Of a stretch of DNA of 64,000 nucleotides, positions 4,046 through 50,170 are shown in pieces. Origin of the DNA: Candidatus Nanopelagicales bacterium (GTDB taxonomy: Bacteria > Actinomycetota > Actinomycetes > S36-B12 > UBA5976); the NCBI GenBank assembly GCA_018402365.1, contig JAGYJD010000002.1:2859-66858 (forward strand), written 5' to 3'. Each line of letters opens with the position of its first letter. Position 1 is the first letter of the stretch. The translations under genes and the position numbers were made by a program. The notes under the pieces were generated by a model. That model was not told the origin of the DNA. It was given only the letters and a program-made list of their open reading frames with translations, and made no database searches.

Positions 4046-4852
4046 CTAGAAGAAATAAAAATTAGTAATGGTGTCGGTGGCCACCAAGCGAATGTAAACA
4101 TCGGCTCCCCAAACTCCAAACAGGGAAATCCAAGCGTACTTAGGATGATGTTGATTTAACTTTGAAACAATGTTCCAAGCCTTATACCTAACTGGATTTT
4201 TACTGAAGTGCTTTAGTTTTCCACCCAAGATGTGACGACAAGAATGGCAAGAAAGCGTGTAAAGCCATAACCAAAACGCGTTGTTGATCAAAATGAGTGT
4301 TCCCACACTCATGTGACCCCATTCGCCAGTGTTGTCTCTAAAAGCAATCACGGCATCAAAAGTTAAAACCATATTGATTACTATCGCCGCGTAAAAGAAG
4401 TAGCGGTGAGAATTTTGCAAAATCAAAGGAGCGCGAGTTTCGCCAGAGTAAGACTTGTGAGGTTCGGCTACGGCGCAAGCAGGTGGCGATAACCAAAAAG
4501 CTCGGTAGTAAGTCTTGCGATAGTAGTAACAAGTCATTCTGAAACCCAATGGAAAAATTAAAATAATTAAAGCGGGGGATAAAACCCACCATGAACCGAA
4601 TGGTTGACCAAAGTCAGAAGCTCCGGGCAAGCAACTGGTAGCTAAGCAAGGGGAATAAAAAGGAGAGAGCAAGGGAGTTACGTAGTAGTACGCACCTTCG
4701 AATGCCCGCCACGTTGCATAGACGACGAAAGAAAGCAAAAAGAAGACGGTGACAGCTGGCTGGATCCACCACCTATCAGTTCTTAAAGTTCTAAAATTTA
4801 TCTTGGCTCTACCTGGGGCATTGGTGCCGCGCGAAAGGGAATCTAAACTCAT
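4046..4852 (-). CDS. putative Sdh membrane anchor (single large cytochrome b-like subunit)
   Basis: 268 aa and polytopic, with His residues. It lies immediately upstream of sdhA on the same strand. Its size and position match the mycobacterial Sdh1 anchor (Rv0249c). Confidence 0.6.
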   Translation of the reverse strand: MSLDSLSRGTNAPGRAKINFRTLRTDRWWIQPAVTVFFLLSFVVYATWRAFEGAYYYVTPLLSPFYSPCLATSCLPGASDFGQPFGSWWVLSPALIILIFPLGFRMTCYYYRKTYYRAFWLSPPACAVAEPHKSYSGETRAPLILQNSHRYFFYAAIVINMVLTFDAVIAFRDNTGEWGHMSVGTLILINNAFWLWLYTLSCHSCRHILGGKLKHFSKNPVRYKAWNIVSKLNQHHPKYAWISLFGVWGADVYIRLVATDTITNFYFF

Positions 4853-28250: not shown

Positions 28251-28940
28251 ATGAAGAAAGTGCAATGGGGAATTCCCAGCGCAATTTTTAGTTTAGTTTT
28301 TACAATTCTGCTAGCACTAGCGGTTGCACAATTCACTAGTGAAGTATTGAAGTTGCCAGTAGCTGAAACGCTTTTATGGAGCCTTGCGGCGCAAACTCTG
28401 GGATTGCTGTTGGTCCCTTTTTATATTTCTTACAAAAAAGGAAACGGCCCTAAACACGATTTTGGGTTACAGCTGCGTAAGAGTGATATCAAAATTGGAA
28501 TAGGGTACGGATTTTTGATATTAGTCGTGGCGTTACTGATTGCCTCGGTACAAATGTCTCTCACTGGAGAGTTTACTTCTGCTGCCGCTAATGCTTCCGC
28601 AGTTTTTTATGAAAATTGGAAGTTACTACTTATTTTTATATTTATGGTAGCAATCGTTGGACCCTTTGTAGAAGAGGTGGCTTTTCGAGGAATGTGGTTT
28701 AGCGCGCTCGAGCGAAAATTTAACAATCAAGCAATTGCAATTGGGGGCTCGGCTTTGGTCTTCTCAGTTATCCACTTAGAAGTTGAGCGAATTTTTCTAA
28801 TTTTTATCACTGGTTTAATTTTGGGTTATTTAAGAGCAAAGACAAAGTCTTTAGGAGCTCCTATTATTGCCCACATGGTAAACAATACGCCAGGCGCTTT
28901 AGGTTTTTTAATCTTAACTACTAGCCCCTTGCCGATTTAA
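28251..28940 (+). CDS. CPBP (CAAX/Abi) family intramembrane metalloprotease
   Basis: EEVAFRG, FSVIHL and HMVNN motifs in a polytopic protein. Confidence 0.75.
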   Translation: MKKVQWGIPSAIFSLVFTILLALAVAQFTSEVLKLPVAETLLWSLAAQTLGLLLVPFYISYKKGNGPKHDFGLQLRKSDIKIGIGYGFLILVVALLIASVQMSLTGEFTSAAANASAVFYENWKLLLIFIFMVAIVGPFVEEVAFRGMWFSALERKFNNQAIAIGGSALVFSVIHLEVERIFLIFITGLILGYLRAKTKSLGAPIIAHMVNNTPGALGFLILTTSPLPI

Positions 28941-29856
28941 GATTCTCTGCAAGATTTTCATGCCTAATTCTTTGATCGGTATAAAGCAAAGCTAAATAGC
29001 TAGCAAAAAAAGCAAGTAATAATGTATAGCCCAAAATTGCGCCGACAGTCTCTATAAATACTGAAGAAGTTGTTAACTCACCTGCCGTAGTAAAGATTTG
29101 TGAAATAATTGAGAAAGGCAATTGAACTAATAGGGCTAATGCTTGAGCCATAATCGTTGCCCAAATGGTTCCAAAGAAAATTCTTGCAAAATTCTTTTTA
29201 ACAAGCGCTCTTGATCTTATTAGAGAGAGCCTGATCGAAGTATTTTCTATTACTAAAATACAAGGAGCTAATAGCAAGCTGGTCCAAATTACAATTAACA
29301 AACCTACCGAAAAAATCAAAGTTATGGACATAATAAAACTTGCCACTACAGGTGAAAATATACTTGAGATTAGTAAAGCCAAAAAAATTGGACCTAAAAA
29401 GCCCGCAACTAAAAATATCATTATTACCAAAGACAATAAAAATAGTTTTCCAATTAGTGGCTTGGTTCTTAACCACGTTTCGTTTCTACTGAGCTTGTTG
29501 CCGGTAATTAAAAAACCAACAGCGGGTGCGATGATTCCAGAAACAATTCCTTGAAAAAAATATAGTGAGAGGGTAAGAAACATGACCACAGTTAAAGTAG
29601 GAAGCAGTGCATTAAAAAGTGCCTCAAGTTGTTCGGGGCTTGGCTGGCTTGAGGTCGAAAGTTGATTGAGCGTTAAATTCAGTGACTGCGGGGAAGGGCT
29701 CAGATAAATCGCGGCTAGTGAAAAAAACCCAAGAATCATTGCAAAATTTAGCGAAATAGCCAAGGTGCCAGCAGGATTTTTGAAAAGAGCCCGCAAGGCC
29801 GCCCCAACGATTTCATTTATTCGTAAGGGTCGAATTTCGATTAGACCTGGTTCCAT
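28921..29856 (-). CDS. polytopic membrane protein of unknown function
   Basis: 311 aa with the N-terminus IRPLRINEIVGAALRALFKNP followed by about 6-7 TM helices. I recognise no catalytic motif. Confidence 0.5.
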   Translation of the reverse strand: MEPGLIEIRPLRINEIVGAALRALFKNPAGTLAISLNFAMILGFFSLAAIYLSPSPQSLNLTLNQLSTSSQPSPEQLEALFNALLPTLTVVMFLTLSLYFFQGIVSGIIAPAVGFLITGNKLSRNETWLRTKPLIGKLFLLSLVIMIFLVAGFLGPIFLALLISSIFSPVVASFIMSITLIFSVGLLIVIWTSLLLAPCILVIENTSIRLSLIRSRALVKKNFARIFFGTIWATIMAQALALLVQLPFSIISQIFTTAGELTTSSVFIETVGAILGYTLLLAFFASYLALLYTDQRIRHENLAENLKSARG

Positions 29857-35200: not shown

Positions 35201-37873
35201 GTGCCAGCCGTATTTGACCGAATTCTGCGCGCCGGAGAAGGGCGACTTCTAAAAAAGCTAGCGGCAATTGTTAAAACTGTAAATGCGCTTGAATCTGATG
35301 TAGAAAACTTAAGCGACGATGAACTCAAAGGATTAACTGAAACTTATAAAACTCGATACCTCAATGGCGAGTCTTTAGATGAATTATTGCCTGAAGCTTT
35401 CGCCACGGTAAGGGAAGCTTCAAAAAGAGTTTTAGGTCAGCGCCATTATGACGTACAGCTCATGGGGGGTGCGGCGCTGCATTTAGGGAATATTGCAGAA
35501 ATGAAAACTGGTGAAGGAAAAACTTTAGTCTCCACTTTGCCTGTTTATTTGAATGCGATTAGTCAAAAAGGCGTGCACGTGGTGACGGTAAATGATTACT
35601 TGGCAAGCCGCGATGCTGAGTGGATGGGAAGAATACACAGATTTTTAGGTCTGACAGTGGGAACTATCACAGCTGACTTAGATAGTGCTGAAAAACGTGA
35701 AGCCTATTTATGCGATATCACCTATGGAACAAATAATGAATTTGGATTTGATTACTTGCGCGACAATATGTCTTGGAGTCCAGAAAAACGAGTACAAAGA
35801 GGACACAATTTTGCGGTAGTGGATGAAGTCGACTCTATCTTGATTGATGAAGCTAGAACCCCACTTATTATTTCTGGTCCAGCTGATGGCACTACCGAGC
35901 AGTACAAAGTGTTTTCAAAACTTGTTTTACAGCTCAAAGCTGAAGAGGATTATGAAGTTGATATCAAAAAGAGAACTGTAGGTGTGTTAGAGCAGGGCAT
36001 TACTAAAGTTGAGACTGCTTTAAAAATTGAAAATCTCTACGAATCTGCCAATACCCCACTAATTGGCTATCTAAATAACGCTTTAAAGGCTAAAGAGATT
36101 TACCGAAAAGACCGTGATTATGTCGTAATGAGCGGTGAAGTCCTAATCATTGATGAACATACTGGAAGAATTTTGCAAGGACGCCGCTATAGCGAGGGTA
36201 TGCATCAAGCAATTGAGGCAAAAGAGGGCGTAGAAATCAAGCAAGAGAATCAAACTTTGGCTTCGATCACTTTGCAAAACTATTTCAGGCTTTACAACAA
36301 ACTAGCTGGTATGACTGGTACAGCAATGACCGAGGCATCTGAGTTCGACAAAATCTACAAGTTGGGAGTTATCCCAATTCCTACAAATAAGCCAATGGCG
36401 CGAGCTGACCTTACGGATTTAATCTTTAGGACAGAAGATGCAAAATATCAAGCGGTAATTGATGATGTTGTCGAAAGAAATAAAAAAGGCCAACCGATTT
36501 TGATTGGCACCGTAAGCGTTGAAAAGTCTGAGTATCTAAGTAAAGCTCTCACCAAAAGAGGAGTTAAGCACGAAGTTTTAAATGCTAAAAATCATGAACG
36601 AGAAGCCATTATTGTGGCGGAAGCGGGTCGCAAAGCTGCGGTAACTGTTGCCACCAACATGGCTGGCCGCGGAACTGACATCATGCTGGGCGGTAATCCA
36701 GAATTTATTGGACGAACTAATTTGGCTACACGCGGGTTAGATCCAGAAGAAGATTTAGCTGGATACTCAAAGGCTTACTTGGAAGAGGTTGAAAAAGCTT
36801 CAGCCCAAGTGCAACAAGAGCATGATGAAGTTGTGGAGCTGGGTGGGCTTTACGTACTTGGAACTGAACGTCACGAATCACGCCGCATCGATAATCAGTT
36901 GCGGGGCCGCTCTGGACGTCAGGGTGACCCGGGAGCTTCCAGATTTTATTTATCTTTGCAAGACGAATTGATGCGTCGATTTAATGCTGAGTTAGTCGAT
37001 GCATTTTTGCGCCGGTTCAATGTTCCAGATGATCAACCAATAGAAGCCAAGATGGTTACAAATGCCATCAAGAATGCACAAACTCAAGTTGAGCAACAAA
37101 ACTTTGAAATTAGAAAAAACGTTTTAAAATATGATGAAGTACTCAACTTACAAAGACAAGTTATCTATGCGGAACGTAAGAGAATTTTAGAGGGCGAAGA
37201 CCTTTCAGCACAAATTCAGCAATTCATTTCTGAAACAGTAAACGATTATGTTACTGCTGCTTTAGGTGATGGCTTTGAAGAAGAATGGGACCTAGAATCT
37301 TTATGGACAGCATTTAAGACGCTCTACCCGATAGGTGTCTCAGTCGATAAAATTCGTCAAGATTTGGGTGGAACGCTCGACCAATTCTCGATTATCGAAG
37401 CCATCGCGGAAGACGCAATTGCTGCTTATCAGGTTAGAGAAGCTACTTTAAGTACATCTGTAATGCGCGAATTGGAACGTCAGGTGATGTTGGCGGTGCT
37501 GGATAGAAAATGGCGTGAGCATCTATATGAGATGGATTATCTGCAAGAAGGAATCGGATTACGAGCAATGGGTCAGCGCGATCCTTTGGTTGAATATCAA
37601 CGAGAAGGCTATGACCTTTTTGCCGCCATGATGGATTCGATAAAAGAACAAGTAATAGGTTTTGTCTTCAATGCTCAGGTTAATCTGAATGACCCGAACC
37701 TTCCAAAGCAAAAAGACGAAAATTTGCAGTATTCAGCTCCGTCGCTAGATCAGGGGACAAATACTGCACCAGAAAGAGTCCCCGCAACCCGTGGCCCAGA
37801 AGTTGGTAGAAATGAACCTTGCCCCTGCGGGTCTGGTAAGAAATATAAAAAGTGTCACGGACAACCGACTTAA
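35201..37873 (+). CDS. secA: preprotein translocase ATPase SecA
   Basis: 890 aa with Walker [10 protein letters not shown], the DEAD-like [20 protein letters not shown], and a C-terminal zinc motif [17 protein letters not shown] start after AAAGGAG. Confidence 0.97.
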
Positions 37874-37944: not shown

Positions 37945-38538
37945 ATGGCAAGACCTCCGAAGGCTGATTATGTTAATTTAATGATTAAATTGGTAAGTAA
38001 AAAATTACTAAATAATGAAGAAGTGAAGATCGCTGATGTAGCTAGCGAATTACAAGTGAGCCCAGCCTTAGTGCATTTTTATTTTCATGATCTTAAGAAT
38101 CTTACTGATGCCGCTTGGCAAAATATATTTATGGCTTTTGTTAATGAAGATCTTGACGCAGTCAATGAATTCGCTCCAGGCAAAGATTGGGATGGTGTAA
38201 GAAATTTAATTAGAGCGATATTTTCAGCAGAGCGAGATGATATTCATTTTTCGCATGCCAAGGCATTAACTAATAGATTTAATTCAGAAGAATTCAATAC
38301 CGTGGTCGGTGAAACCCATCAGGCGCAAATTGATTCTTGGAAAAACCTAATGGAAAAATACACTCAAGCGGGGGTGGTAAAACCAGTAGTTGATACTCAG
38401 GCTCTGGCAATTTTGTTTATCGCGGTACCCCTAGGAGTTGCCTTGGTAAAACCAGAGCTGACCCCAGGGGAGCGCAAAAATCTCTCCGAAGCATGGCTCG
38501 CCATGATTAGAGCTGTTATGGACCCAGACTTAAGCTGA
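37945..38538 (+). CDS. TetR-family transcriptional regulator
   Basis: N-terminal HTH VKIADVASELQVSPALVHFYFHDLKNL; 197 aa. Confidence 0.7.
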   Translation: MARPPKADYVNLMIKLVSKKLLNNEEVKIADVASELQVSPALVHFYFHDLKNLTDAAWQNIFMAFVNEDLDAVNEFAPGKDWDGVRNLIRAIFSAERDDIHFSHAKALTNRFNSEEFNTVVGETHQAQIDSWKNLMEKYTQAGVVKPVVDTQALAILFIAVPLGVALVKPELTPGERKNLSEAWLAMIRAVMDPDLS

Positions 38539-38541
38539 GTA

Positions 38542-39021
38542 TCAGGCAACTAGCAGTTCAGTGCAGCGCCAGCGATCGGATTCAGCGACGAGTCGCATAG
38601 CCATAGCCCTGCCTCTAACTCCCTTTTGGATCACTGCGCTTACATTGATGACATTTTCATTTAGTTGAGAAACCTGAACGCATCTCAAAAGTGGTCGGGC
38701 TCGGTTTCCGGCGGGAGGTGGCCAGATGGCACGACGTTGCACTGAGCAATAGACATCAAAAGCTAACCAACGAATGAGTTGAAAAGCTGGGCGATCTCCT
38801 ATTAACACCTCAGCGATACCAATTGCTAACTTTTCGCTCCATACTTTTGGATCAGGCAGTCGAGACAAAGATTTCGTGCTAATTTCTTGATGATCAAAAG
38901 TTAAGCACAACTCAAGATCGAATTGTTCTTGCAGATACACGGAGTTTTGCTTATCTGGCGTTTCGATGGTTCCTAACACTCTTCCTACTTTGGTGAGCGG
39001 CTTGGTTTTAAGATCTTTCAT
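38542..39021 (-). CDS. Rv3235 family protein (conserved secA neighbour, function unknown)
   Basis: LIGDRPAFQLIRWL...VSAVIQKGVRGRAMAMRLVAESDRWRCTELLVA matches the pattern I recall for this family, and the gene sits next to secA. Confidence 0.65.
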   Translation of the reverse strand: MKDLKTKPLTKVGRVLGTIETPDKQNSVYLQEQFDLELCLTFDHQEISTKSLSRLPDPKVWSEKLAIGIAEVLIGDRPAFQLIRWLAFDVYCSVQRRAIWPPPAGNRARPLLRCVQVSQLNENVINVSAVIQKGVRGRAMAMRLVAESDRWRCTELLVA

Positions 39022-39137
39022 ATAACCCCCTTTAAGGAGCCAGTACTGTCTAACACTTTCTGGGAAAAGTCAAATGAATTAACCGAAAAGTACCTATTTT
39101 TGAAAATAACTTGATTCTCACAAAAAGAACTACCAAC

Positions 39138-39674
39138 ATGTTTCGAATGAAACGAGATTTCTTAAGTCAAGTAGAAAAAAACATAGAGGTTCAAGCCGGT
39201 GGCTTGCTGGCGATGGCGCGGGAAGATCAGGCATTTTCTCAGGCGCGGGGTGAGTTGGCTCGGCTCGAGATTGCAGATCGGTTGCGGGCTAAAATTGGCA
39301 AGTCGATCAAGGTTTTAATAATTGAAATCGGTTGGTTCGAAGGAACAGTTCAGCAGGTATTTTTAGATCACCTTCTGTTAAAAATCCATTCAAAACTTTG
39401 GCTTATCAAGTTTTTTAGCTTACAAGCTGTGCAAAGGCTGGAACAAGGGGTAAAGAAACCTAATCGACTTGAAAAAAATTGGACAATTAGTTCTACGTTT
39501 CGCGACTGGATGATAGATCAGACAAAGGTCACAATTCGAACAGTTCAAGGCTTGTCCATAAACGGAGAGATTACGCGCATCTATCAGGATCATTTAGAGA
39601 TTGGTTCAGCGTTAGAGGTAACGGCAGTACCATTCCAGGCGATTTTAGTAGCAATGAGGAATTATGAAATTTAA
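39138..39674 (+). CDS. hypothetical protein with a helical N-terminus and two tandem beta-rich repeats
   Basis: This is the first gene of a three-gene overlapping set. An internal duplication is visible (KV.I...G.....DHL). ATG at 39138; the ORF track starts at TTG 39111. Confidence 0.5.
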   Translation: MFRMKRDFLSQVEKNIEVQAGGLLAMAREDQAFSQARGELARLEIADRLRAKIGKSIKVLIIEIGWFEGTVQQVFLDHLLLKIHSKLWLIKFFSLQAVQRLEQGVKKPNRLEKNWTISSTFRDWMIDQTKVTIRTVQGLSINGEITRIYQDHLEIGSALEVTAVPFQAILVAMRNYEI

Positions 39675-40260
39675 AAAATTTCCTAAGGCAATTTTGTCAG
39701 ATAGAAGAAAATTAACTGCCACAGTTGGACTATTGCTGATTTTAATTAGTTTTGCAATTATGTATCAAGCTTTACAGCTAGCTCAGTCACGGTCTTTGGT
39801 ACCCATCGCGGTGCGAGATCTGCCATTAGGAAAGTTGGTTGAGCCAGAGGATTTAAAAATGATCTCGGCCGATCTTGGCACTGTCAAAAACAACTATTTT
39901 TCTAATCTAGATGAGATAGTAGGTAAAGCAGTTATTCAAAATATCTCTGCTAATGACTTGATTTCAATAGATGCGGTAGGCAAAAGTCGTGACCTACGCA
40001 CATTAGCTATGAAGCTCTCGTTGGGAAGCGTGCCTCCAGACTTAGCAATTAATGACAAGATTGATATCTGGTGGACTAATCCAGAAAATGCAAAAGCAGA
40101 GAATTTAATTCAAGATGTAAATACCGCTCAAGTCATAAAAGATGGTTCTGGTTATGCCAGCACGATTACAGTGGTAGTCGCAATCCCACCCTGGCAAGTT
40201 GCCAATTTGATCACGGCAGCCAGGACTGAATCTTTGGATGTGGTGAAGCATGAAAACTGA
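39664..40260 (+). CDS. SAF-domain, CpaB/RcpC-like single-pass membrane protein
   Basis: An N-terminal TM helix (LTATVGLLLILISFAIMY) followed by a SAF-like region (VPIAVRDLPLGKLVEPEDL...GKAVIQNISANDLI). There are 11-nt overlaps on both sides. Confidence 0.62.
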   Translation: MKFKKFPKAILSDRRKLTATVGLLLILISFAIMYQALQLAQSRSLVPIAVRDLPLGKLVEPEDLKMISADLGTVKNNYFSNLDEIVGKAVIQNISANDLISIDAVGKSRDLRTLAMKLSLGSVPPDLAINDKIDIWWTNPENAKAENLIQDVNTAQVIKDGSGYASTITVVVAIPPWQVANLITAARTESLDVVKHEN

Positions 40261-41485
40261 AATTCTTCTTGCAATCAATGACTCCGAATGGGAGCTGGAG
40301 CTGGGTAGAGCTATTTCTGAAAGTCCTTATTTAAAAATTTCGAGAAGGTGTGTGGATTTATCTGAAGTACTAACCATGCTTGAAGTTGACAATCATCAAG
40401 CAGTGATTTTTTCTAGTGAATTACCAGGATTAGACCTAGCTGCGGTATCTCGAATAAAAGAAAAAAATTGTCTAGCGCTTGGAGTATTTAAAGAGGGGGA
40501 ATTTGGACAAGCTGAATTTTTATCTGAAATCGAAGTAGCTCAAGTGCTTAGCTTTAACTCTCATTCTAATACTGCATTTATAAATAATCTTATTTTTTGT
40601 TTAAATCAATTTTTATCAATCACTACTCCTGAAGTTAATCAAGGAATAATTCCTGGGCTAATCGCAGTATGGGGGGCGGAAGGGGCACCAGGCCGTACTA
40701 GCCTGGCAATTGATTTTGCCACTAGATTAAACAAAAATAATTCGTCCAGTTTGTTAATTGATGCTGATGTGCAAGCTCCCGCGATCGGTGCCAGCTTGGG
40801 AATCGCCGAAGAAATCTCAGGAATAAGTGCAGCGCTGCACCTTGCCCAAAATGGAAAATTGAATCAACAAACATTCTCTGATTGTCTAAAGCGAGACCTT
40901 AAAGGCATGGCAGTGCTTACAGGAATCATGAATCCCAACCGTTGGATCGAAATGAGAAGCGGCGGATTAGAGAAACTCTTTAAATTGGCGAGCGGTGAAT
41001 TTACCCATCAAATTGTAGATATCAATGCGAGCCTGCCTGATCAGAGAGATTCTAATTTTCCAGAATTTGACTCTACGGTGAGATTTGGACATTTAAAAAC
41101 AATTTTTCGCTTGGCAGAAAAAATCGTTTTTGTCACTAAAGCTAATCCGTTAGGGATAATTAGAACAGCCGAGGTATTACAAAATCAAAGTCTTTTTGAA
41201 GCAGAAAAACTATTAGTAGTAGTTAATCAAGTTAATCAATATTCCTTTGCAAAGTATGGAACAAAGTTGATTGAAGATGTGCTACATAGATTTGTTCCAG
41301 CACACCGAATTTGGTACCACCAAGCTTTTAACGAGGAGTACGCAAAAGCTTGGCTCAAGGGGGTTAGCGGCTATTCCCTACTCAAAGGCGAATCAGATTT
41401 AGACTCAATTTTTGATGAATTAAAATCGCAGGAAGTAAATAAAATTGAACTTTTTGAAAACAAAATCTCTAAGCCTGCCGCTTAA
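40250..41485 (+). CDS. TadZ/CpaE/Ssd-like protein: atypical receiver domain + MinD/ParA-fold domain with a degenerate P-loop
   Basis: A receiver-like N-terminus lacks the acceptor Asp (AVIFSSELPG). The P-loop region reads IAVWGAEGAPGRTSLA, followed by LLIDADVQ. Confidence 0.62.
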   Translation: MKTEILLAINDSEWELELGRAISESPYLKISRRCVDLSEVLTMLEVDNHQAVIFSSELPGLDLAAVSRIKEKNCLALGVFKEGEFGQAEFLSEIEVAQVLSFNSHSNTAFINNLIFCLNQFLSITTPEVNQGIIPGLIAVWGAEGAPGRTSLAIDFATRLNKNNSSSLLIDADVQAPAIGASLGIAEEISGISAALHLAQNGKLNQQTFSDCLKRDLKGMAVLTGIMNPNRWIEMRSGGLEKLFKLASGEFTHQIVDINASLPDQRDSNFPEFDSTVRFGHLKTIFRLAEKIVFVTKANPLGIIRTAEVLQNQSLFEAEKLLVVVNQVNQYSFAKYGTKLIEDVLHRFVPAHRIWYHQAFNEEYAKAWLKGVSGYSLLKGESDLDSIFDELKSQEVNKIELFENKISKPAA

Positions 41486-41957
41486 AAGCAGTCTCTATCA
41501 GCATAAATTCTATTGCAGAAATATCATTCCAGGTTTTTTCAGCAAAATTCTCTATCTTTTCACCAAAAAATGGAAGTGAAGCCGAGATTTCGAGATCAAG
41601 AACTAACTCTGTAGCTGAATTTTTGGGCAATAAGCTCAAGTTTCCAGAGATACTAAGGGGAGCATTTTTAATTTCAATTATGACTTCAGCTGCTGTTAAA
41701 TCCTCACTCCAAACAAATCGTTCGGTGACTGATATTTGATTACCCAAAAAACTTTGTACTATCTCAGGTAGTTCGCGCTCAAAATCTCGGATTAATTCAG
41801 TTGTTATTGAGTCGTCGGTTTGACTCGTAGTGAATTTACTACTTTTGGCGTGAGTAGCATCCCCCTTTTTTAAATTAAAGTCTTTACTCTGCAAGAACTC
41901 TGCCAACTCTTTCACTCTGGCATTAATCACCGTAGTGTTTCTGATTTTTTTACTCAA
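41469..41957 (-). CDS. DUF2505 (SRPBCC-like) family protein
   Basis: About 160 aa. LPEIVQSFLG...ISASLPFFGEKIENFAEK resembles the DUF2505 C-terminal pattern. TTG start. Confidence 0.5.
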   Translation of the reverse strand: MSKKIRNTTVINARVKELAEFLQSKDFNLKKGDATHAKSSKFTTSQTDDSITTELIRDFERELPEIVQSFLGNQISVTERFVWSEDLTAAEVIIEIKNAPLSISGNLSLLPKNSATELVLDLEISASLPFFGEKIENFAEKTWNDISAIEFMLIETAFKRQA

Positions 41958-42061
41958 TTTTTATCCTGAATCCATCCTTAGCAAGAGGCAAATTTGGTAC
42001 ATGATTTATGAAACCTATTTGACTTCAGCAACACTCAAATAATAAAGATAGTGGAGTGTTG

Positions 42062-42838
42062 ATGAAGTATCGTTCATTTAAACTTTCAGCGCGTGATCGA
42101 GTTGCGCAAAATAGAATCTTGGCAGGCTTAGTAAGTGCTGCCATTGTTGATATCTGGCGCAATGTGGTTGGTATTTCGCCCGGATGGGATGACTCTGCAG
42201 TTTTACCTAGTAAATTCTGCGTCGGATCCAGTTCACAATTGTTAGTTTTCTGCCTAGATTCAATAGACAACATGATTCACTCACGCACTTACCTGACCGC
42301 AGAGGATTTGGCGCAAGGTTTAACTCAAACCATCAAGGTATTCGAACGTGGTTTGGCAGACCCTGGTGAATTATGTGCGAATTTTTTAGCTCAGCAGTTG
42401 AGTGAAGTCGTTGTTAAAGAACAAGCATGGCAGCGATTTCGAGCTCCCTTGATTTCACTTAGTGGACGAGAGGCGAACTTTATTGAATACTTGCCGATAG
42501 CGTTTTCAGCCTTGGCGCTGGATTCTAACTGGGGGAGAGCAAAGCAAGTACTTTGCTATCTTTCAGAGAAATTTCAAATTGATTTAAATTGTGAGTATAT
42601 TTGGCAAACCTGGATGGCATTTCATCGTAAAGAAGATTTAATCGTGCGTTACCAAAACTTAGAGAAAATTATTCTGGATTTTGAAATTAGTCCAGCTGAA
42701 GCAATGGTGGCTGCATTCAACTTTGGTCTAAAAGACGGCTTAAAGACTTTTTACAACTCTTGGCCCAACCGAATGGATGTTTTTGAGGCCTTTGAAGTGC
42801 TGGCAAATCGGTTAGTTACGAACTTGAACCATCACTAG
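42062..42838 (+). CDS. hypothetical protein (orphan, probably all-alpha)
   Basis: A 258-260 aa ORF with GTGGAG 5 nt before ATG at 42062. I recognise no motif. Confidence 0.45.
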   Translation: MKYRSFKLSARDRVAQNRILAGLVSAAIVDIWRNVVGISPGWDDSAVLPSKFCVGSSSQLLVFCLDSIDNMIHSRTYLTAEDLAQGLTQTIKVFERGLADPGELCANFLAQQLSEVVVKEQAWQRFRAPLISLSGREANFIEYLPIAFSALALDSNWGRAKQVLCYLSEKFQIDLNCEYIWQTWMAFHRKEDLIVRYQNLEKIILDFEISPAEAMVAAFNFGLKDGLKTFYNSWPNRMDVFEAFEVLANRLVTNLNHH

Positions 42839-47275: not shown

Positions 47276-47776
47276 CTAGCCTCGCCGCGAGTGGTCGCCA
47301 CCACGCAACTGGTCAAGCGCATGGGGGAGGATTTCTTCTAAAACGGTCATGGCATCGCGGACCCCTCCAATTGAGCCGGGCACGTTAATGATCAAAGTGT
47401 TGGTGCAAATTCCGGCAATTGCCCGAGAAAGCGCACTGTGAAAAACTCCTTGACTGATTCCATAGGCACGAATGGCTTCGCTGATTCCTGGCGATTCTCT
47501 TTCAATTACCTCTCTAGTCATTTCTGGAGTGACATCAGTTGGTGAGTGACCAGTTCCTCCCGTGGTTATCACTAAGTCAAAATTCTGCTTAACTGCCTTT
47601 AATAAGGATTCCTTTACGCTAACTCCATCTGGTATCACTTCGACTGCTTCGCAAGTTAAACCAAGTGAAGTAAGTTTTTCAAAGATCAGCGCGCCTGAAG
47701 TGTCTTGCCAGATTCCTGCCGCAGCTCTAGTAGAGACAGAAATTACTTTTGCGCGAAATGCACTTAGGTCACTCAT
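47276..47776 (-). CDS. MogA/MoaB family molybdenum cofactor biosynthesis protein
   Basis: [19 protein letters not shown] and INVPGS motifs. The ATG overlaps the upstream stop (ATGAGTGA). Confidence 0.8.
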
Positions 47777-49265
47777 TTTCTAGCAGAATTGAGCGGCGCG
47801 GAGTAGCAAATTTGTCACTTATTTCTTGCAATTCATCAGAGACTATTTTTTTTAATCTCTTGTCACTTGCCAAAATGGCCTTTAACTCAGTAATTATTTG
47901 GTTTAATTCTTTCTGCTCTGTTTCTAGTTCAATTCTTGAAGTTTTGGTAAGTCGTCGTAGTGGCATATCCAAAATGTAATTGGTCTGCACTTCGCTTAGC
48001 TTGAATGTCTTAATTATTTTTTCTCTTGCAACTTGAGCATCTTCACTAGCTCGGATAATTTTGATAACTTTATCGATATCAACTATTGCTAAGAGCAACC
48101 CTTCCACTAAGTGAAGTCGCTCATTGGCCTTTTTAAGCCTAAATTCACTGCGTCGAGTTACCACGGCTAATCGGTGCTTTAAGTAAACCTGTAACAATTC
48201 GGCTAGACCCAATGTGCGAGGTCGACCGTCAACCAAAGCGACAGAATTTATTGAAAAAGATTCTTCCATTGGGGTAAGGCGGTAGAGGTCTGCTAATAAT
48301 TCTTCTGGCTCATGACTAGATTTGACTTCAATTACGAGCCGTAGCCCTTTCTCACCGTCGGTCAAATCGGTAACTCTCGAAATTCCTTTTAGCTTCTTGG
48401 AATCCACCAGCGATTTAATGCGATCAATAATTCTCTCAGTACCAACATTGAAAGGTAATTGGGTAATGACGATTGCTTTTTTGCGGGAGGTGACTGATTC
48501 GATGCTCGCGCTAGCTCGGATTTTGAAAGTTCCGCGCCCAGTTGAATAAGCTTCTTGGATGTTGGCTAAATCCAAAATTTGCCCACCACCTGGTAAGTCC
48601 GGAGCTGGAATGTGTTTCATTAAATCAGCTAAAGAAGCTTTTGGATTTTCAATGTAATAACGCAACGCGCTTATCACTTCACCAAGATTGTGGGGCGGCA
48701 TGTTGGTAGCCATTCCAACAGCGATGCCGCTAGCGCCATTAACTAGCAGGTTTGGAAAAGCTGCCGGCAAGACACTGGGTTCAACTTCTCTACCGTCGTA
48801 ATTTGCTCGAAAATCTACGACATCTTCATCCAGCGAGTCAGTCATGCTTAAGGCGGCGGCAGTCAGGCGGCATTCGGTATAGCGCATTGCAGCCGGTCCA
48901 TCATCTAGTGAACCAAAGTTACCTTGACCGTCTATTAAGGGAAGTCGCAATGAGAACGGTTGCGCCATTCTGACCAAGGCGTCATAAATTGCGCTGTCAC
49001 CGTGTGGGTGCAATTTACCCATTACCTCGCCGATTACACGTGCGCTTTTTACGTGACCGCGCTCAGGGCGCAAGCCCATCTCGCTCATTTGAAAAAGAAT
49101 TCTTCTTTGAACTGGCTTTAACCCATCTCGGGCATCAGGTAAGGCTCTAGCGTAAATAACCGAATAGGCATATTCTAAAAAAGATTCACGCATTTCATCA
49201 GAAACATCAATATCGATTATTCGCTCGGGAGTACTAGCATCCAAGACTGTTTTCTTAGGTGACAA
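47769..49265 (-). CDS. type IIA topoisomerase subunit A (GyrA/ParC-like), breakage-reunion domain only, no C-terminal beta-pinwheel domain
   Basis: [36 protein letters not shown] and the active-site [10 protein letters not shown] are present. The ORF stops at residue 498, right after the PRRSI (RRT.I-like) boundary motif. Confidence 0.8.
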
Positions 49266-49276
49266 TTAAATAAGCC

Positions 49277-50170
49277 TTATTCGTTTGTTTTAGATCCCGA
49301 TCCAAACAAAATCTCGTCCCAACTTGGAACCGAGGCACGCTTAGGTTTGGTAGCGGGTTTTTCTTCTTCGGGTTCTTCTTGAGCGACCGATGATTCATTT
49401 GCATTTTCAACTTTAGGTATTTCTTGAGTTGAAGCAAACATCGAGGTGGTAGCTAAATTAGGAGTCGGAATAGGCATGGTTTGAGCCGCTGGGTCAGTTT
49501 GACCTGCGGGGGTGACCCAATTTGGTAATTCAGAATCTTCTTCAAAGGCAACTTCTTTCGGTACTGCCACTAACCTTGGAGTGGTGATTTCTGCGGCTGA
49601 TTCTTCTTCGGGAACATCAAGCAGCCATCTTGCAACATCATTTAATGGGGCAATGGTTGACACCGAAGAATCAAAAACCCAATGAGCTTCACTTTCTCCT
49701 TTTTTGCCCATAAAAGCTAGCGCCACGTTCCAGCGACCATCATCTCTGCGCCAAGCATCCCAACGCATTGAAGAGGGGTTTCCTCCACCATTAACCACTC
49801 TTGACTCAACAATGTCATTAAAAGCAGCGCTACCGCGAGCTTTTCTAATTTCTGTGGCTTTGGCTTTTTGTGAAATAAAATAACGCTCTTGTAAAACCGG
49901 TTGCTCATATTTTCTTATTCTGCTTAGCTCTATTCCGGTAACTTGGGCTAAATCTTCCGCAGTTATTCCACCACGAATACGAGCTTGAATTTCAGCAACT
50001 GTTAAATCTTGATTTTGATCTTGATCCTGTGGCTTTGGTCGTTCTTTCCACTGTCGAATTGCATCACGAATTTCTTCATTTATTTCAACTTGAAATTCGA
50101 TTCCATCGGAATCGCGCAGCTGCAAAAAAGCGCCATCTTCGCTTAGTTTGGCAAATCTTAACGCGCGCAA
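49277..50170 (-). CDS. sepH: cell-division protein SepH (DUF3071)
   Basis: N-terminal MRALRFAKLSEDGAFLQL, the HTH region LTVAEIQARIRGGITAEDLAQVTG, and the conserved C-terminal SVPSWDEILFG. TTG start after AAGGGA. Confidence 0.72.
   Translation of the reverse strand: MRALRFAKLSEDGAFLQLRDSDGIEFQVEINEEIRDAIRQWKERPKPQDQDQNQDLTVAEIQARIRGGITAEDLAQVTGIELSRIRKYEQPVLQERYFISQKAKATEIRKARGSAAFNDIVESRVVNGGGNPSSMRWDAWRRDDGRWNVALAFMGKKGESEAHWVFDSSVSTIAPLNDVARWLLDVPEEESAAEITTPRLVAVPKEVAFEEDSELPNWVTPAGQTDPAAQTMPIPTPNLATTSMFASTQEIPKVENANESSVAQEEPEEEKPATKPKRASVPSWDEILFGSGSKTNE

Follow-up and report, generated by a model that had tools for sequence, protein, structure and literature searches.

A conserved secA-linked gene cluster of Actinomycetota encoding RcpC/CpaB-like and TadZ-like proteins, and its three-gene version in Nanopelagicaceae

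Downstream of secA in Candidatus Nanopelagicales bacterium (GenBank assembly GCA_018402365.1, contig JAGYJD010000002.1), three genes follow each other in series on the forward strand. They lie in a stretch of 64,000 nucleotides (positions 2,859 to 66,858 of the contig) that was analyzed as a whole and is here called the window; all coordinates refer to it unless another locus is named. The three open reading frames (ORFs) span positions 39111-39674, 39664-40260, and 40250-41485 and encode a protein of a family here called O1, a membrane protein with a SAF domain (SAF), and a protein with a ParA/MinD-type domain (Z). The longest ORF for O1 starts from TTG 39111; as homologues have their first residue at its M10 or M13, the O1 product has 175-178 amino acids, and the gene is placed at 39147-39674 (175 amino acids) or starts at ATG 39138 (178 amino acids). 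The SAF gene (39664-40260, assigned by its Pfam SAF match) codes for 198 amino acids and the Z gene (40250-41485, assigned by AlphaFold2 model and Foldseek) for 411.

The O1 and SAF genes share 11 nucleotides (tATGAAATTTAA, 39664-39674, forward strand, with GAGGA upstream), and so do the SAF and Z genes (cATGAAAACTGA, 40250-40260, forward strand, with GGTGA upstream). At both junctions, the downstream ATG lies 8 nucleotides ahead of the stop codon of the upstream gene, with a Shine-Dalgarno-like sequence ahead of each start (aatGAGGAattATGaaatttaa for O1-SAF, gtGGTGAagcATGaaaactga for SAF-Z). The 3' end of the Z gene overlaps by 17 nucleotides (41469-41485) with a convergent gene for a DUF2505 protein (41469-41957, reverse strand; Pfam DUF2505, E = 6.5e-23), which is also a downstream neighbor in the wider synteny. 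Both 11-nucleotide overlaps and the convergent overlap recur in two metagenomic relatives (L089 and L090), and since this layout has been kept at only 52-57% protein identity, the trio can be considered to consist of real genes under constraint. An overlap of 1-11 nucleotides between the SAF stop and the Z start was found in 61 of the 85 loci surveyed below. SAF and Z are a translationally coupled pair that forms the core of the cluster. A first-pass annotation of the sequence had listed the same ORF coordinates, strands, lengths, and overlaps, and its proposal of translational coupling is supported by the overlaps, the Shine-Dalgarno-like sequences, and the recurrence of the layout in L089 and L090. 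A scan for promoters and terminators gave counts that were not above those of shuffled sequence.

The SAF protein matches the Pfam SAF model above its cutoff (E = 3.4e-8; 34.3 bits, cutoff 21) and contains one hydrophobic helix at approximately residues 17-39, with a basic N-terminus ahead of it, in line with the single-pass membrane protein of 198 amino acids with a SAF-type domain that had been predicted before. The predicted transmembrane helix LTATVGLLLILISFAIMYQALQL (39712-39780, forward strand, from the translation) reaches a Kyte-Doolittle mean of 2.11 over 19 amino acids. Only three residues (M1, G22, and Y78) are invariant in the SAF alignment (A4), and G22 is the sole invariant one in the transmembrane helix, whose family consensus is G-V-L-L-V with the Gly invariant. 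Searched with a profile of the SAF family (21 members), the PDB sequences contained RcpC of Pseudomonas aeruginosa (9gzr, residues 23-197, E = 5.7e-4) as the only significant match, which covers the SAF domain and the following beta domain. The TIGR03177 model for CpaB scored 36.7 bits, below its 71-bit cutoff, and covered only the SAF part, and Pfam RcpC had no match in the protein. The SAF protein is distantly CpaB/RcpC-like: as in those proteins, a membrane anchor at the N-terminus precedes the SAF (beta-clip) domain, and the 9gzr alignment suggests that a second beta domain is shared as well. It differs from them in being shorter (198 compared with about 260-280 amino acids) and in residing in a monoderm host, where there is no secretin to connect to. 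The basic N-terminus is probably cytoplasmic, with a single pass through the membrane and the SAF and second beta domains outside.

For the Z protein, the AlphaFold2 model (pLDDT, the predicted local distance difference test, 81) shows two domains: residues 1-123 fold into a flavodoxin-like, receiver-type domain, and residues 137-390 into one of the ParA/MinD type. The top Foldseek match is TadZ of Eubacterium rectale (3FKQ, E = 1.4e-10 over 386 columns), which is also the only match that covers both domains at a low E-value. Fold and architecture agree in this respect with the earlier assignment of Z as TadZ/CpaE/Ssd-like, whereas the curated sequence models do not: Pfam CbiA, AAA_31, and ParA gave weak matches below cutoff, and the Ssd model TIGR03815 reached only 25 bits (E = 9.3e-6) against a cutoff of 154.45. 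Profile searches, which had been suggested as a check, are significant for SAF and remain below the cutoffs for Z. The best sequence matches of Z in the PDB are Soj, FleN, FlhG, and MinD.

Z shares with TadZ/CpaE proteins (3FKQ and CpaE of Caulobacter crescentus) the combination of an atypical receiver domain with a ParA/MinD-type domain, and its gene adjoins one for a CpaB/RcpC-like protein. In the receiver-like domain, a Ser occupies the position of the phospho-acceptor Asp (as read from the Z alignment, A2). The differences from TadZ/CpaE are considerable: identity is about 14%, the sequence of Z is closer to those of Soj, FleN, and MinD than to that of TadZ, a C-terminal amphipathic helix is not apparent, the gene never stands beside cpaF/tadA or tadB/C, and the deviant Walker A motif with its ATP-binding lysines is replaced by a variant P-loop, WGAEGAPGRTS (40670-40702, forward strand, from the translation). 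When aligned with Soj, MinD, and RecA, this loop has an Arg at the position of the catalytic Walker A Lys; where deviant Walker A motifs have their signature Lys, Z has a Glu (relatives also Ala or Thr). The sequence GAPGR[TS], in the general form WGxxGAPGR[TS], is present in 85/85 members of the Z family; the pattern with which the loci were collected ended at GAP, so that the Arg was not selected for. Invariant in the alignment are R149, D171 and D173 (switch I), E188, D257 (Walker B), and N326, and the nucleotide pocket is conserved apart from the Lys-to-Arg change. The term pseudo-ATPase, which had been applied to Z, appears to be a reasonable label, and as judged from its residues the pattern would better fit nucleotide binding with slow or no hydrolysis. 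Like Ssd (Rv3660c, TIGR03815), Z is an actinobacterial ParA/MinD-type protein of Tad ancestry, but it belongs to a separate family, and its neighborhood is that of secA rather than of tadA and a helicase gene.

The O1 protein was modeled by AlphaFold2 from a nine-sequence alignment (mean pLDDT 81) as a helix (residues 3-59) ahead of two barrels of five strands each, which agrees with the helical N-terminus and two tandem repeats that had been described for a product of about 180 amino acids. The barrels are mutually homologous (profile-profile comparison with hhalign, probability 96%, E = 1e-9), and each has an Sm/Hfq-like fold according to Foldseek (Hfq at E of about 3e-3, template-modeling score 0.65-0.8, about 0.7, on the target). 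They differ from Sm and Hfq proteins in being arranged in tandem in one chain behind a helix of approximately 57 residues and in having no significant sequence similarity to them, Pfam Hfq and LSM included. Against the curated family libraries, O1 gave only sub-threshold matches (e.g., DUF2642 at E = 0.005), and among 18 family members searched against Pfam, one had a weak Hfq match (E = 0.014) and three had weak DUF2642 matches; the PDB sequences returned only sub-threshold matches or designed proteins. The family comprises 359 representative clusters at E <= 1e-3 in an exhaustive profile search, nearly all of 170-210 amino acids. O1 is predicted to be a cytoplasmic protein of an uncharacterized family and is a conserved neighbor of SAF-Z; the earlier remark that the first gene has no recognizable counterpart in Tad loci is supported.

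In order to determine where else these genes occur, one genome per GTDB species was scanned for Z, and at least 575 genomes with a Z relative were found, of which the best 80 were kept. The locus-search pattern was drawn from a five-sequence Z alignment, as an 18-sequence alignment contained no stretch that was conserved enough. A synteny survey by ORF calls and hidden Markov models (HMMs) then covered 84 loci from other Actinomycetota, including Geodermatophilaceae, Kribbella, Nocardioides, Frankiales, Dermatophilaceae, Jiangellaceae, and others, plus the window, giving 85 loci. The order in the 84 loci is nearly invariant (plus and minus denote the strand): secA+, DUF6459-, p223-, O1+, HTH_17-, SAF+, Z+, WS_DGAT+, DUF6912+, often with DUF2505- further downstream. 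SAF is present in 85/85 loci, HTH_17 in 84/85, O1 in 71/85, p223 in 64/85, DUF6459 in about 67, and secA in 55, the last count being limited by contig ends. Word-based searches for Z homologues led to Geodermatophilus, Modestobacter, Blastococcus, Nocardioides, Demequina, Tetrasphaera, Frankiales, and others, with proteins of 400-450 amino acids at about 25-29% identity. In Modestobacter muralis, for example, the order is lpqB, comF-like, hpf, two genes, secA, DUF6459(-), p223(-), a gene for 183 amino acids (+), HTH_17(-), SAF(+), Z(+), WS_DGAT, glutaminase, and DUF6912, and the 183-amino-acid protein is an O1 homologue (E = 2e-7). Four further contexts that were looked up independently (Demequina, Tetrasphaera, and two metagenome contigs) have the same order.

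The window fits into this picture, as its SAF gene is followed by a coupled, GAPGR-type Z gene downstream of secA and the DUF6459 gene. Here, secA (35201-37873, forward strand) is the anchor of a conserved region with mtrA, mtrB, lpqB, a comF-like gene, hpf, and secA itself, and the DUF6459 (Rv3235-family) gene (38542-39021, reverse strand; Pfam DUF6459, E = 1.9e-23), divergent from O1, is the conserved neighbor that ties the trio to secA. Since the flanks of the window are textbook (mtrA to secA) and the order recurs in 84/84 loci, the trio belongs to the core synteny. It is an ancient, vertically inherited actinobacterial cluster that is fixed downstream of secA and the DUF6459 gene. The first-pass annotation had presented the three genes as an orphan module interrupting textbook synteny; neither statement stands, as the cluster recurs in all 84 related loci and in every homologue context examined and is itself part of that synteny. 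Co-occurrence of the three families, which had been proposed as a test, is complete for SAF with Z and partial for O1, which is missing where the pair is not beside secA. In 14 loci (largely of the Nocardioides type, two of them cut by a contig end), HTH-SAF-Z lies away from secA and O1 is not alongside, which puts the ancestral breakpoint between O1 and HTH_17. The tie of O1 to SAF and Z is weakly supported and rests on neighborhood and on the operon fusion in the lineage of the window.

That fusion is the main peculiarity of the window, which is the only one of the 85 loci without the divergent HTH_17 gene upstream of SAF; an HTH_17 HMM run on the six-frame translation of the whole window found nothing at E <= 10. 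The genes for p223, WS_DGAT, and DUF6912 are likewise absent from the locus, and a TetR-like gene stands between secA and the DUF6459 gene. The same gene losses and the same TetR-like gene are seen in low-GC relatives (L085-L090; GC, guanine plus cytosine), whereas a high-GC metagenome-assembled genome (MAG) assigned to Nanopelagicales (L033, 64% GC) has kept O1, HTH_17, SAF, and Z. The overlapping three-gene operon can be explained by the loss, in this lineage, of the HTH_17 gene that elsewhere separates O1 from SAF: O1 is a separate transcription unit in most Actinomycetota and is fused into the operon in the window lineage. As the trio has been kept at full length in a streamlined lineage that shed four neighboring genes, selection on it is indicated. 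A natural minimal three-gene module, without the HTH_17 regulator, is hereby defined in the most abundant freshwater bacterioplankton lineage.

Further observations concern the neighboring genes. The TetR-like gene (37945-38538, forward strand) has weak TetR_C_25 and BetI matches and occurs only in the low-GC Nanopelagicaceae loci (the window and L085-L090), in which HTH_17 has been lost. The p223 proteins (~220-275 amino acids, no Pfam match) are encoded between DUF6459 and O1 (e.g., L001:7495-8166, reverse strand) and have no counterpart in the window; DUF6459, p223, and O1 may be a unit of their own, as they stay with secA where HTH-SAF-Z is elsewhere. The HTH_17 gene between O1 and SAF (e.g., L001:8836-9081, reverse strand) is present in 84/84 loci (L001-L084), and its product is strongly conserved, with the consensus RFLxLxDVAExLNISxxQxYALVRxGELPAIKIGGRGQWRV. 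BldC was considered as the HTH_17 protein and dropped, as its sequence is unlike the family consensus. A 17-kb contig labeled as a Spirochaetaceae MAG (L007, JAJAYQ010000022.1) has the full order of secA, DUF6459, p223, O1, HTH, SAF, and Z and is probably a mis-binned actinobacterial contig. In two metagenome contigs (L093 and L094), secA, WS_DGAT, and an aldehyde dehydrogenase gene are fragmented, which looks like assembly frameshifts and not like pseudogenes.

Genetic work on such a pair exists for one organism, Micrococcus luteus, which Torasso Kasem et al. (2021) screened for altered comEA/EC expression (PMC8467076). Of the derepressed mutants obtained with ethyl methanesulfonate (EMS), nearly all carried single-nucleotide polymorphisms in a 550-bp region over Mlut_14660, the divergent Mlut_14650, and the sequence between them (PMC8467076). 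Mlut_14660 codes for an HTH_17, excisionase-family protein, a deletion of which was not obtained, and Mlut_14650 for a SAF, RcpC/CpaB-like protein that is co-transcribed with Mlut_14640, which codes for a CpaE/TadZ-like protein; the divergent transcripts of Mlut_14660 and Mlut_14650 overlap (PMC8467076). Clean deletion of Mlut_14650 lowered transformation 10^4-fold and raised comEA/EC promoter activity, and a G27D change in the same protein lowered transformation more than 10^5-fold (PMC8467076). Geodermatophilus, Rothia, Jonesia, and Cellulomonas were found to share this arrangement, of which Nocardioides has a rearranged form (PMC8467076); Geodermatophilus and Nocardioides are also part of the present set of loci with that arrangement. 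M. luteus G27 and V31 fit the consensus G-V-L-L-V of the SAF-family transmembrane helix, with G27 at the invariant Gly. Judging from the gene arrangement, the shared genera, and the matching residues, Mlut_14650 and Mlut_14640 are very likely orthologous to SAF and Z. The M. luteus locus ("cluster 13") resembles that of the window in having a SAF gene followed by a CpaE/TadZ-like gene in one operon apart from the tad clusters, and differs in that the window lacks HTH_17 and has O1 fused into the operon. A mapping of the M. luteus HTH_17 mutations onto the family was not used as evidence: at one offset S27 and R64 fit the consensus, and S46 does not. The apparent counterpart of the HTH_17 protein in M. 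luteus resisted deletion, and the protein may be of broad importance as a regulator in Actinomycetota.

Thus, the pair itself was known from one species and its arrangement from a handful of genera. The M. luteus paper contains no description of O1, the secA link, or the Arg P-loop (PMC8467076), and our literature search found no account of the anchoring to secA/DUF6459, the occurrence in at least 575 species, the invariant Arg of the P-loop, the O1 family with its tandem Sm-like barrels, or the HTH_17-free minimal version in Nanopelagicaceae. The present results are an incremental advance and not a new kind of system.

Transformation of M. luteus depends on Tad pili, and its tad-1 and tad-2 clusters lack tadZ and rcpC (PMC4322843). 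This bears on a condition that had been set out in the first-pass annotation, namely that a tad locus elsewhere without its own cpaB and cpaE would turn the genes of the window into displaced parts; the literature suggests that just such a situation exists in M. luteus. In Planktophila, genes for CpaF and TadBCG are located in the flexible genomic island GI2, and ComE/F are nearly ubiquitous in Nanopelagicales according to an isolate study of 2025 (PMC12817590). Cryo-electron tomography of Caulobacter showed CpaB as an alignment cage anchored in the inner membrane and the CpaF hexamer with six CpaE dimers surrounding it (PMC13170226), which makes it plausible that a CpaB-plus-CpaE pair can act as a self-contained trans-membrane scaffold.

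No Tad machinery is encoded within the window, as had been noticed before: T2SSE, T2SSF, Flp, and peptidase_A24 were found neither by a Pfam scan of ~60 ORFs (E <= 1e-5, then E <= 0.1 for ORFs without a match) nor by P-loop and Flp-motif scans, the P-loop pattern recovering the ABC-transporter P-loops. Within 10 kb of SAF-Z, no T2SSE-type P-loop was found in the 84 loci either. With respect to base composition, the module was said to be more AT-rich than its flanks, which is mildly true (GC of 39.7% vs 43.2% for the window, the 4th percentile of same-size windows), but the GC content at third codon positions (GC3) of the trio (0.29-0.42) overlaps that of its neighbors (0.31-0.43). The stretch 40561-40620, for which about 20% GC had been estimated, is indeed very AT-rich and measures 15%, the lowest 60-mer of the window; it is not intergenic but lies inside the Z gene and encodes an N/F/I/L-rich helix connecting the receiver-like part of Z to its ATPase domain. 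No tRNA or mobile-element genes were found near the trio. Foreign origin finds no support in GC, GC3, percentiles, or the tRNA search.

SAF and Z are of Tad ancestry, as their closest characterized relatives, RcpC and TadZ 3FKQ, are Tad-specific parts. On balance, we lean toward the view that SAF and Z form a trans-membrane alignment or localization scaffold for a Tad/Flp competence pilus that is encoded elsewhere. In such a scaffold, SAF would make up the outer ring, and Z would be a dimer or ring that keeps its nucleotide bound, hydrolyzes it slowly or not at all, and docks the CpaF/TadA motor. Genes at other sites of the genome would supply this motor along with the TadB/C platform, the pilins, and the peptidase. 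As in M. luteus, com-gene expression would respond to the state of the module, and O1 would be an accessory. Both a physical association with the Tad machine and a loss of ATPase activity in Z are inferred here. A number of points weigh against the scaffold. There is no neighborhood evidence for a Tad link, given that no Tad gene lies within 10 kb in 84 loci or in the window, and Z stays below the cutoffs of every curated ParA, TadZ, and Ssd model and lacks the signature lysine. The place of O1 in the module is weakly supported because O1 is absent beside HTH-SAF-Z in 14 loci. Moreover, the M. luteus authors call a direct role in pilus formation unverified (PMC8467076), the phenotype could be regulatory because the deletion also alters com transcription, and the operon is unusually highly expressed (PMC8467076).

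The same high expression, together with the altered comEA/EC promoter activity of the deletion strain (PMC8467076), would fit an autonomous module, i.e., a Tad-derived trio that works without a pilus in envelope-spanning positioning or signaling (division, the Com DNA channel, or wall assembly), SAF anchoring a nucleotide-locked Z scaffold in the membrane. Such a module would also account for a pair that is never adjacent to Tad genes in 84 loci and yet is kept beside secA across orders, for a trio in the core genome when the tad genes of Planktophila sit in a flexible island (PMC12817590), and for an invariant P-loop change in a family distinct from Ssd/TIGR03815; the TadZ of the M. tuberculosis Tad locus is itself named septum-site-determining protein Ssd (the NCBIfam model name). 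We nevertheless regard the autonomous module as somewhat unlikely, as the sole experimental phenotype is a loss of transformation, which is Tad-pilus-dependent in M. luteus (PMC4322843), both proteins have Tad-specific parts as their closest characterized relatives, and no division or envelope phenotype has been reported. The first-pass annotation had suggested a stand-alone positioning module rather than a pilus remnant; its first half is weakened by the M. luteus literature on tad and transformation, and its rejection of a remnant agrees with our results. The most far-reaching form of the idea, which we think unlikely, is that O1-SAF-Z are a self-sufficient Tad-derived, pilus-free machine that positions or gates the ComEA/ComEC channel or another envelope process. 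Z would be locked in a nucleotide-bound state by the Arg P-loop and coupled across the membrane by SAF, with the tandem Sm-like O1 as its link to a partner protein or nucleic acid. If true, this would explain why the trio is kept by secA in genomes of ~1.3 Mb while tad genes sit in a flexible island.

A mainly regulatory role is quite improbable in our estimation. SAF and Z (with HTH_17 where present) would then sense the envelope or nutritional state and control com/tad transcription without being a structural part of a pilus. The clustering of the comEA/EC-derepressing EMS mutations in Mlut_14660, Mlut_14650, and the region between, the overlapping transcripts, and the apparent essentiality of the HTH_17 gene in M. 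luteus (PMC8467076) are in favor of regulation, as are the strong conservation of HTH_17 in 84/84 non-streamlined loci and the receiver-like domain in the AlphaFold2 model of Z. That domain, however, lacks the phospho-acceptor Asp, and the window lineage has lost HTH_17 with SAF and Z intact, so that SAF-Z must have an HTH_17-independent function. That the trio is an island gained by horizontal transfer, or the remnant of a pilus that is decaying and no longer has a function, as the lower GC (39.7% vs 43.2%), the one stretch of 15% GC, and the weak scores of the curated models might suggest, can be given hardly any credence. GC3 is within the range of the neighbors, the position and gene order are the same across the phylum, mobile-element or tRNA genes were not found nearby, and the ORFs are full-length with motifs that are invariant at 52-57% identity (a family-level clade) and at 25% across orders. 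Synteny and conservation effectively refute an origin of this kind.

Competence in Actinomycetota is poorly understood, and one M. luteus screen pointed to a SAF/CpaE-like locus outside the tad clusters. Returning to the scaffold for a competence pilus that we favor, the pair described here is a concrete candidate for the missing TadZ and CpaB of actinobacterial competence pili.

Apart from the cluster, a few genes of the window deserve mention. A reverse-strand gene at 47769-49265 encodes a protein of 498 amino acids whose only domain is DNA_topoisoIV (GyrA/ParC N-terminal), the C-terminal domain being absent; a GyrB/ParE-like partner for it was not seen in the window. It adjoins a DUF3071 gene (49277-50170, reverse strand), and this arrangement is conserved in L089 and L090. 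Three ORFs had no significant Pfam match, namely those at 28921-29856 (reverse strand, 311 amino acids), 4046-4852 (reverse strand, 268 amino acids), and 42056-42838 (forward strand, 260 amino acids). The 311-amino-acid ORF lies between a CAAX protease gene and mtrA. The ORF of 260 amino acids, whose only match has E = 0.097, has the DUF2505 gene on one side and the BioY gene on the other, and it is also conserved in L085-L089.

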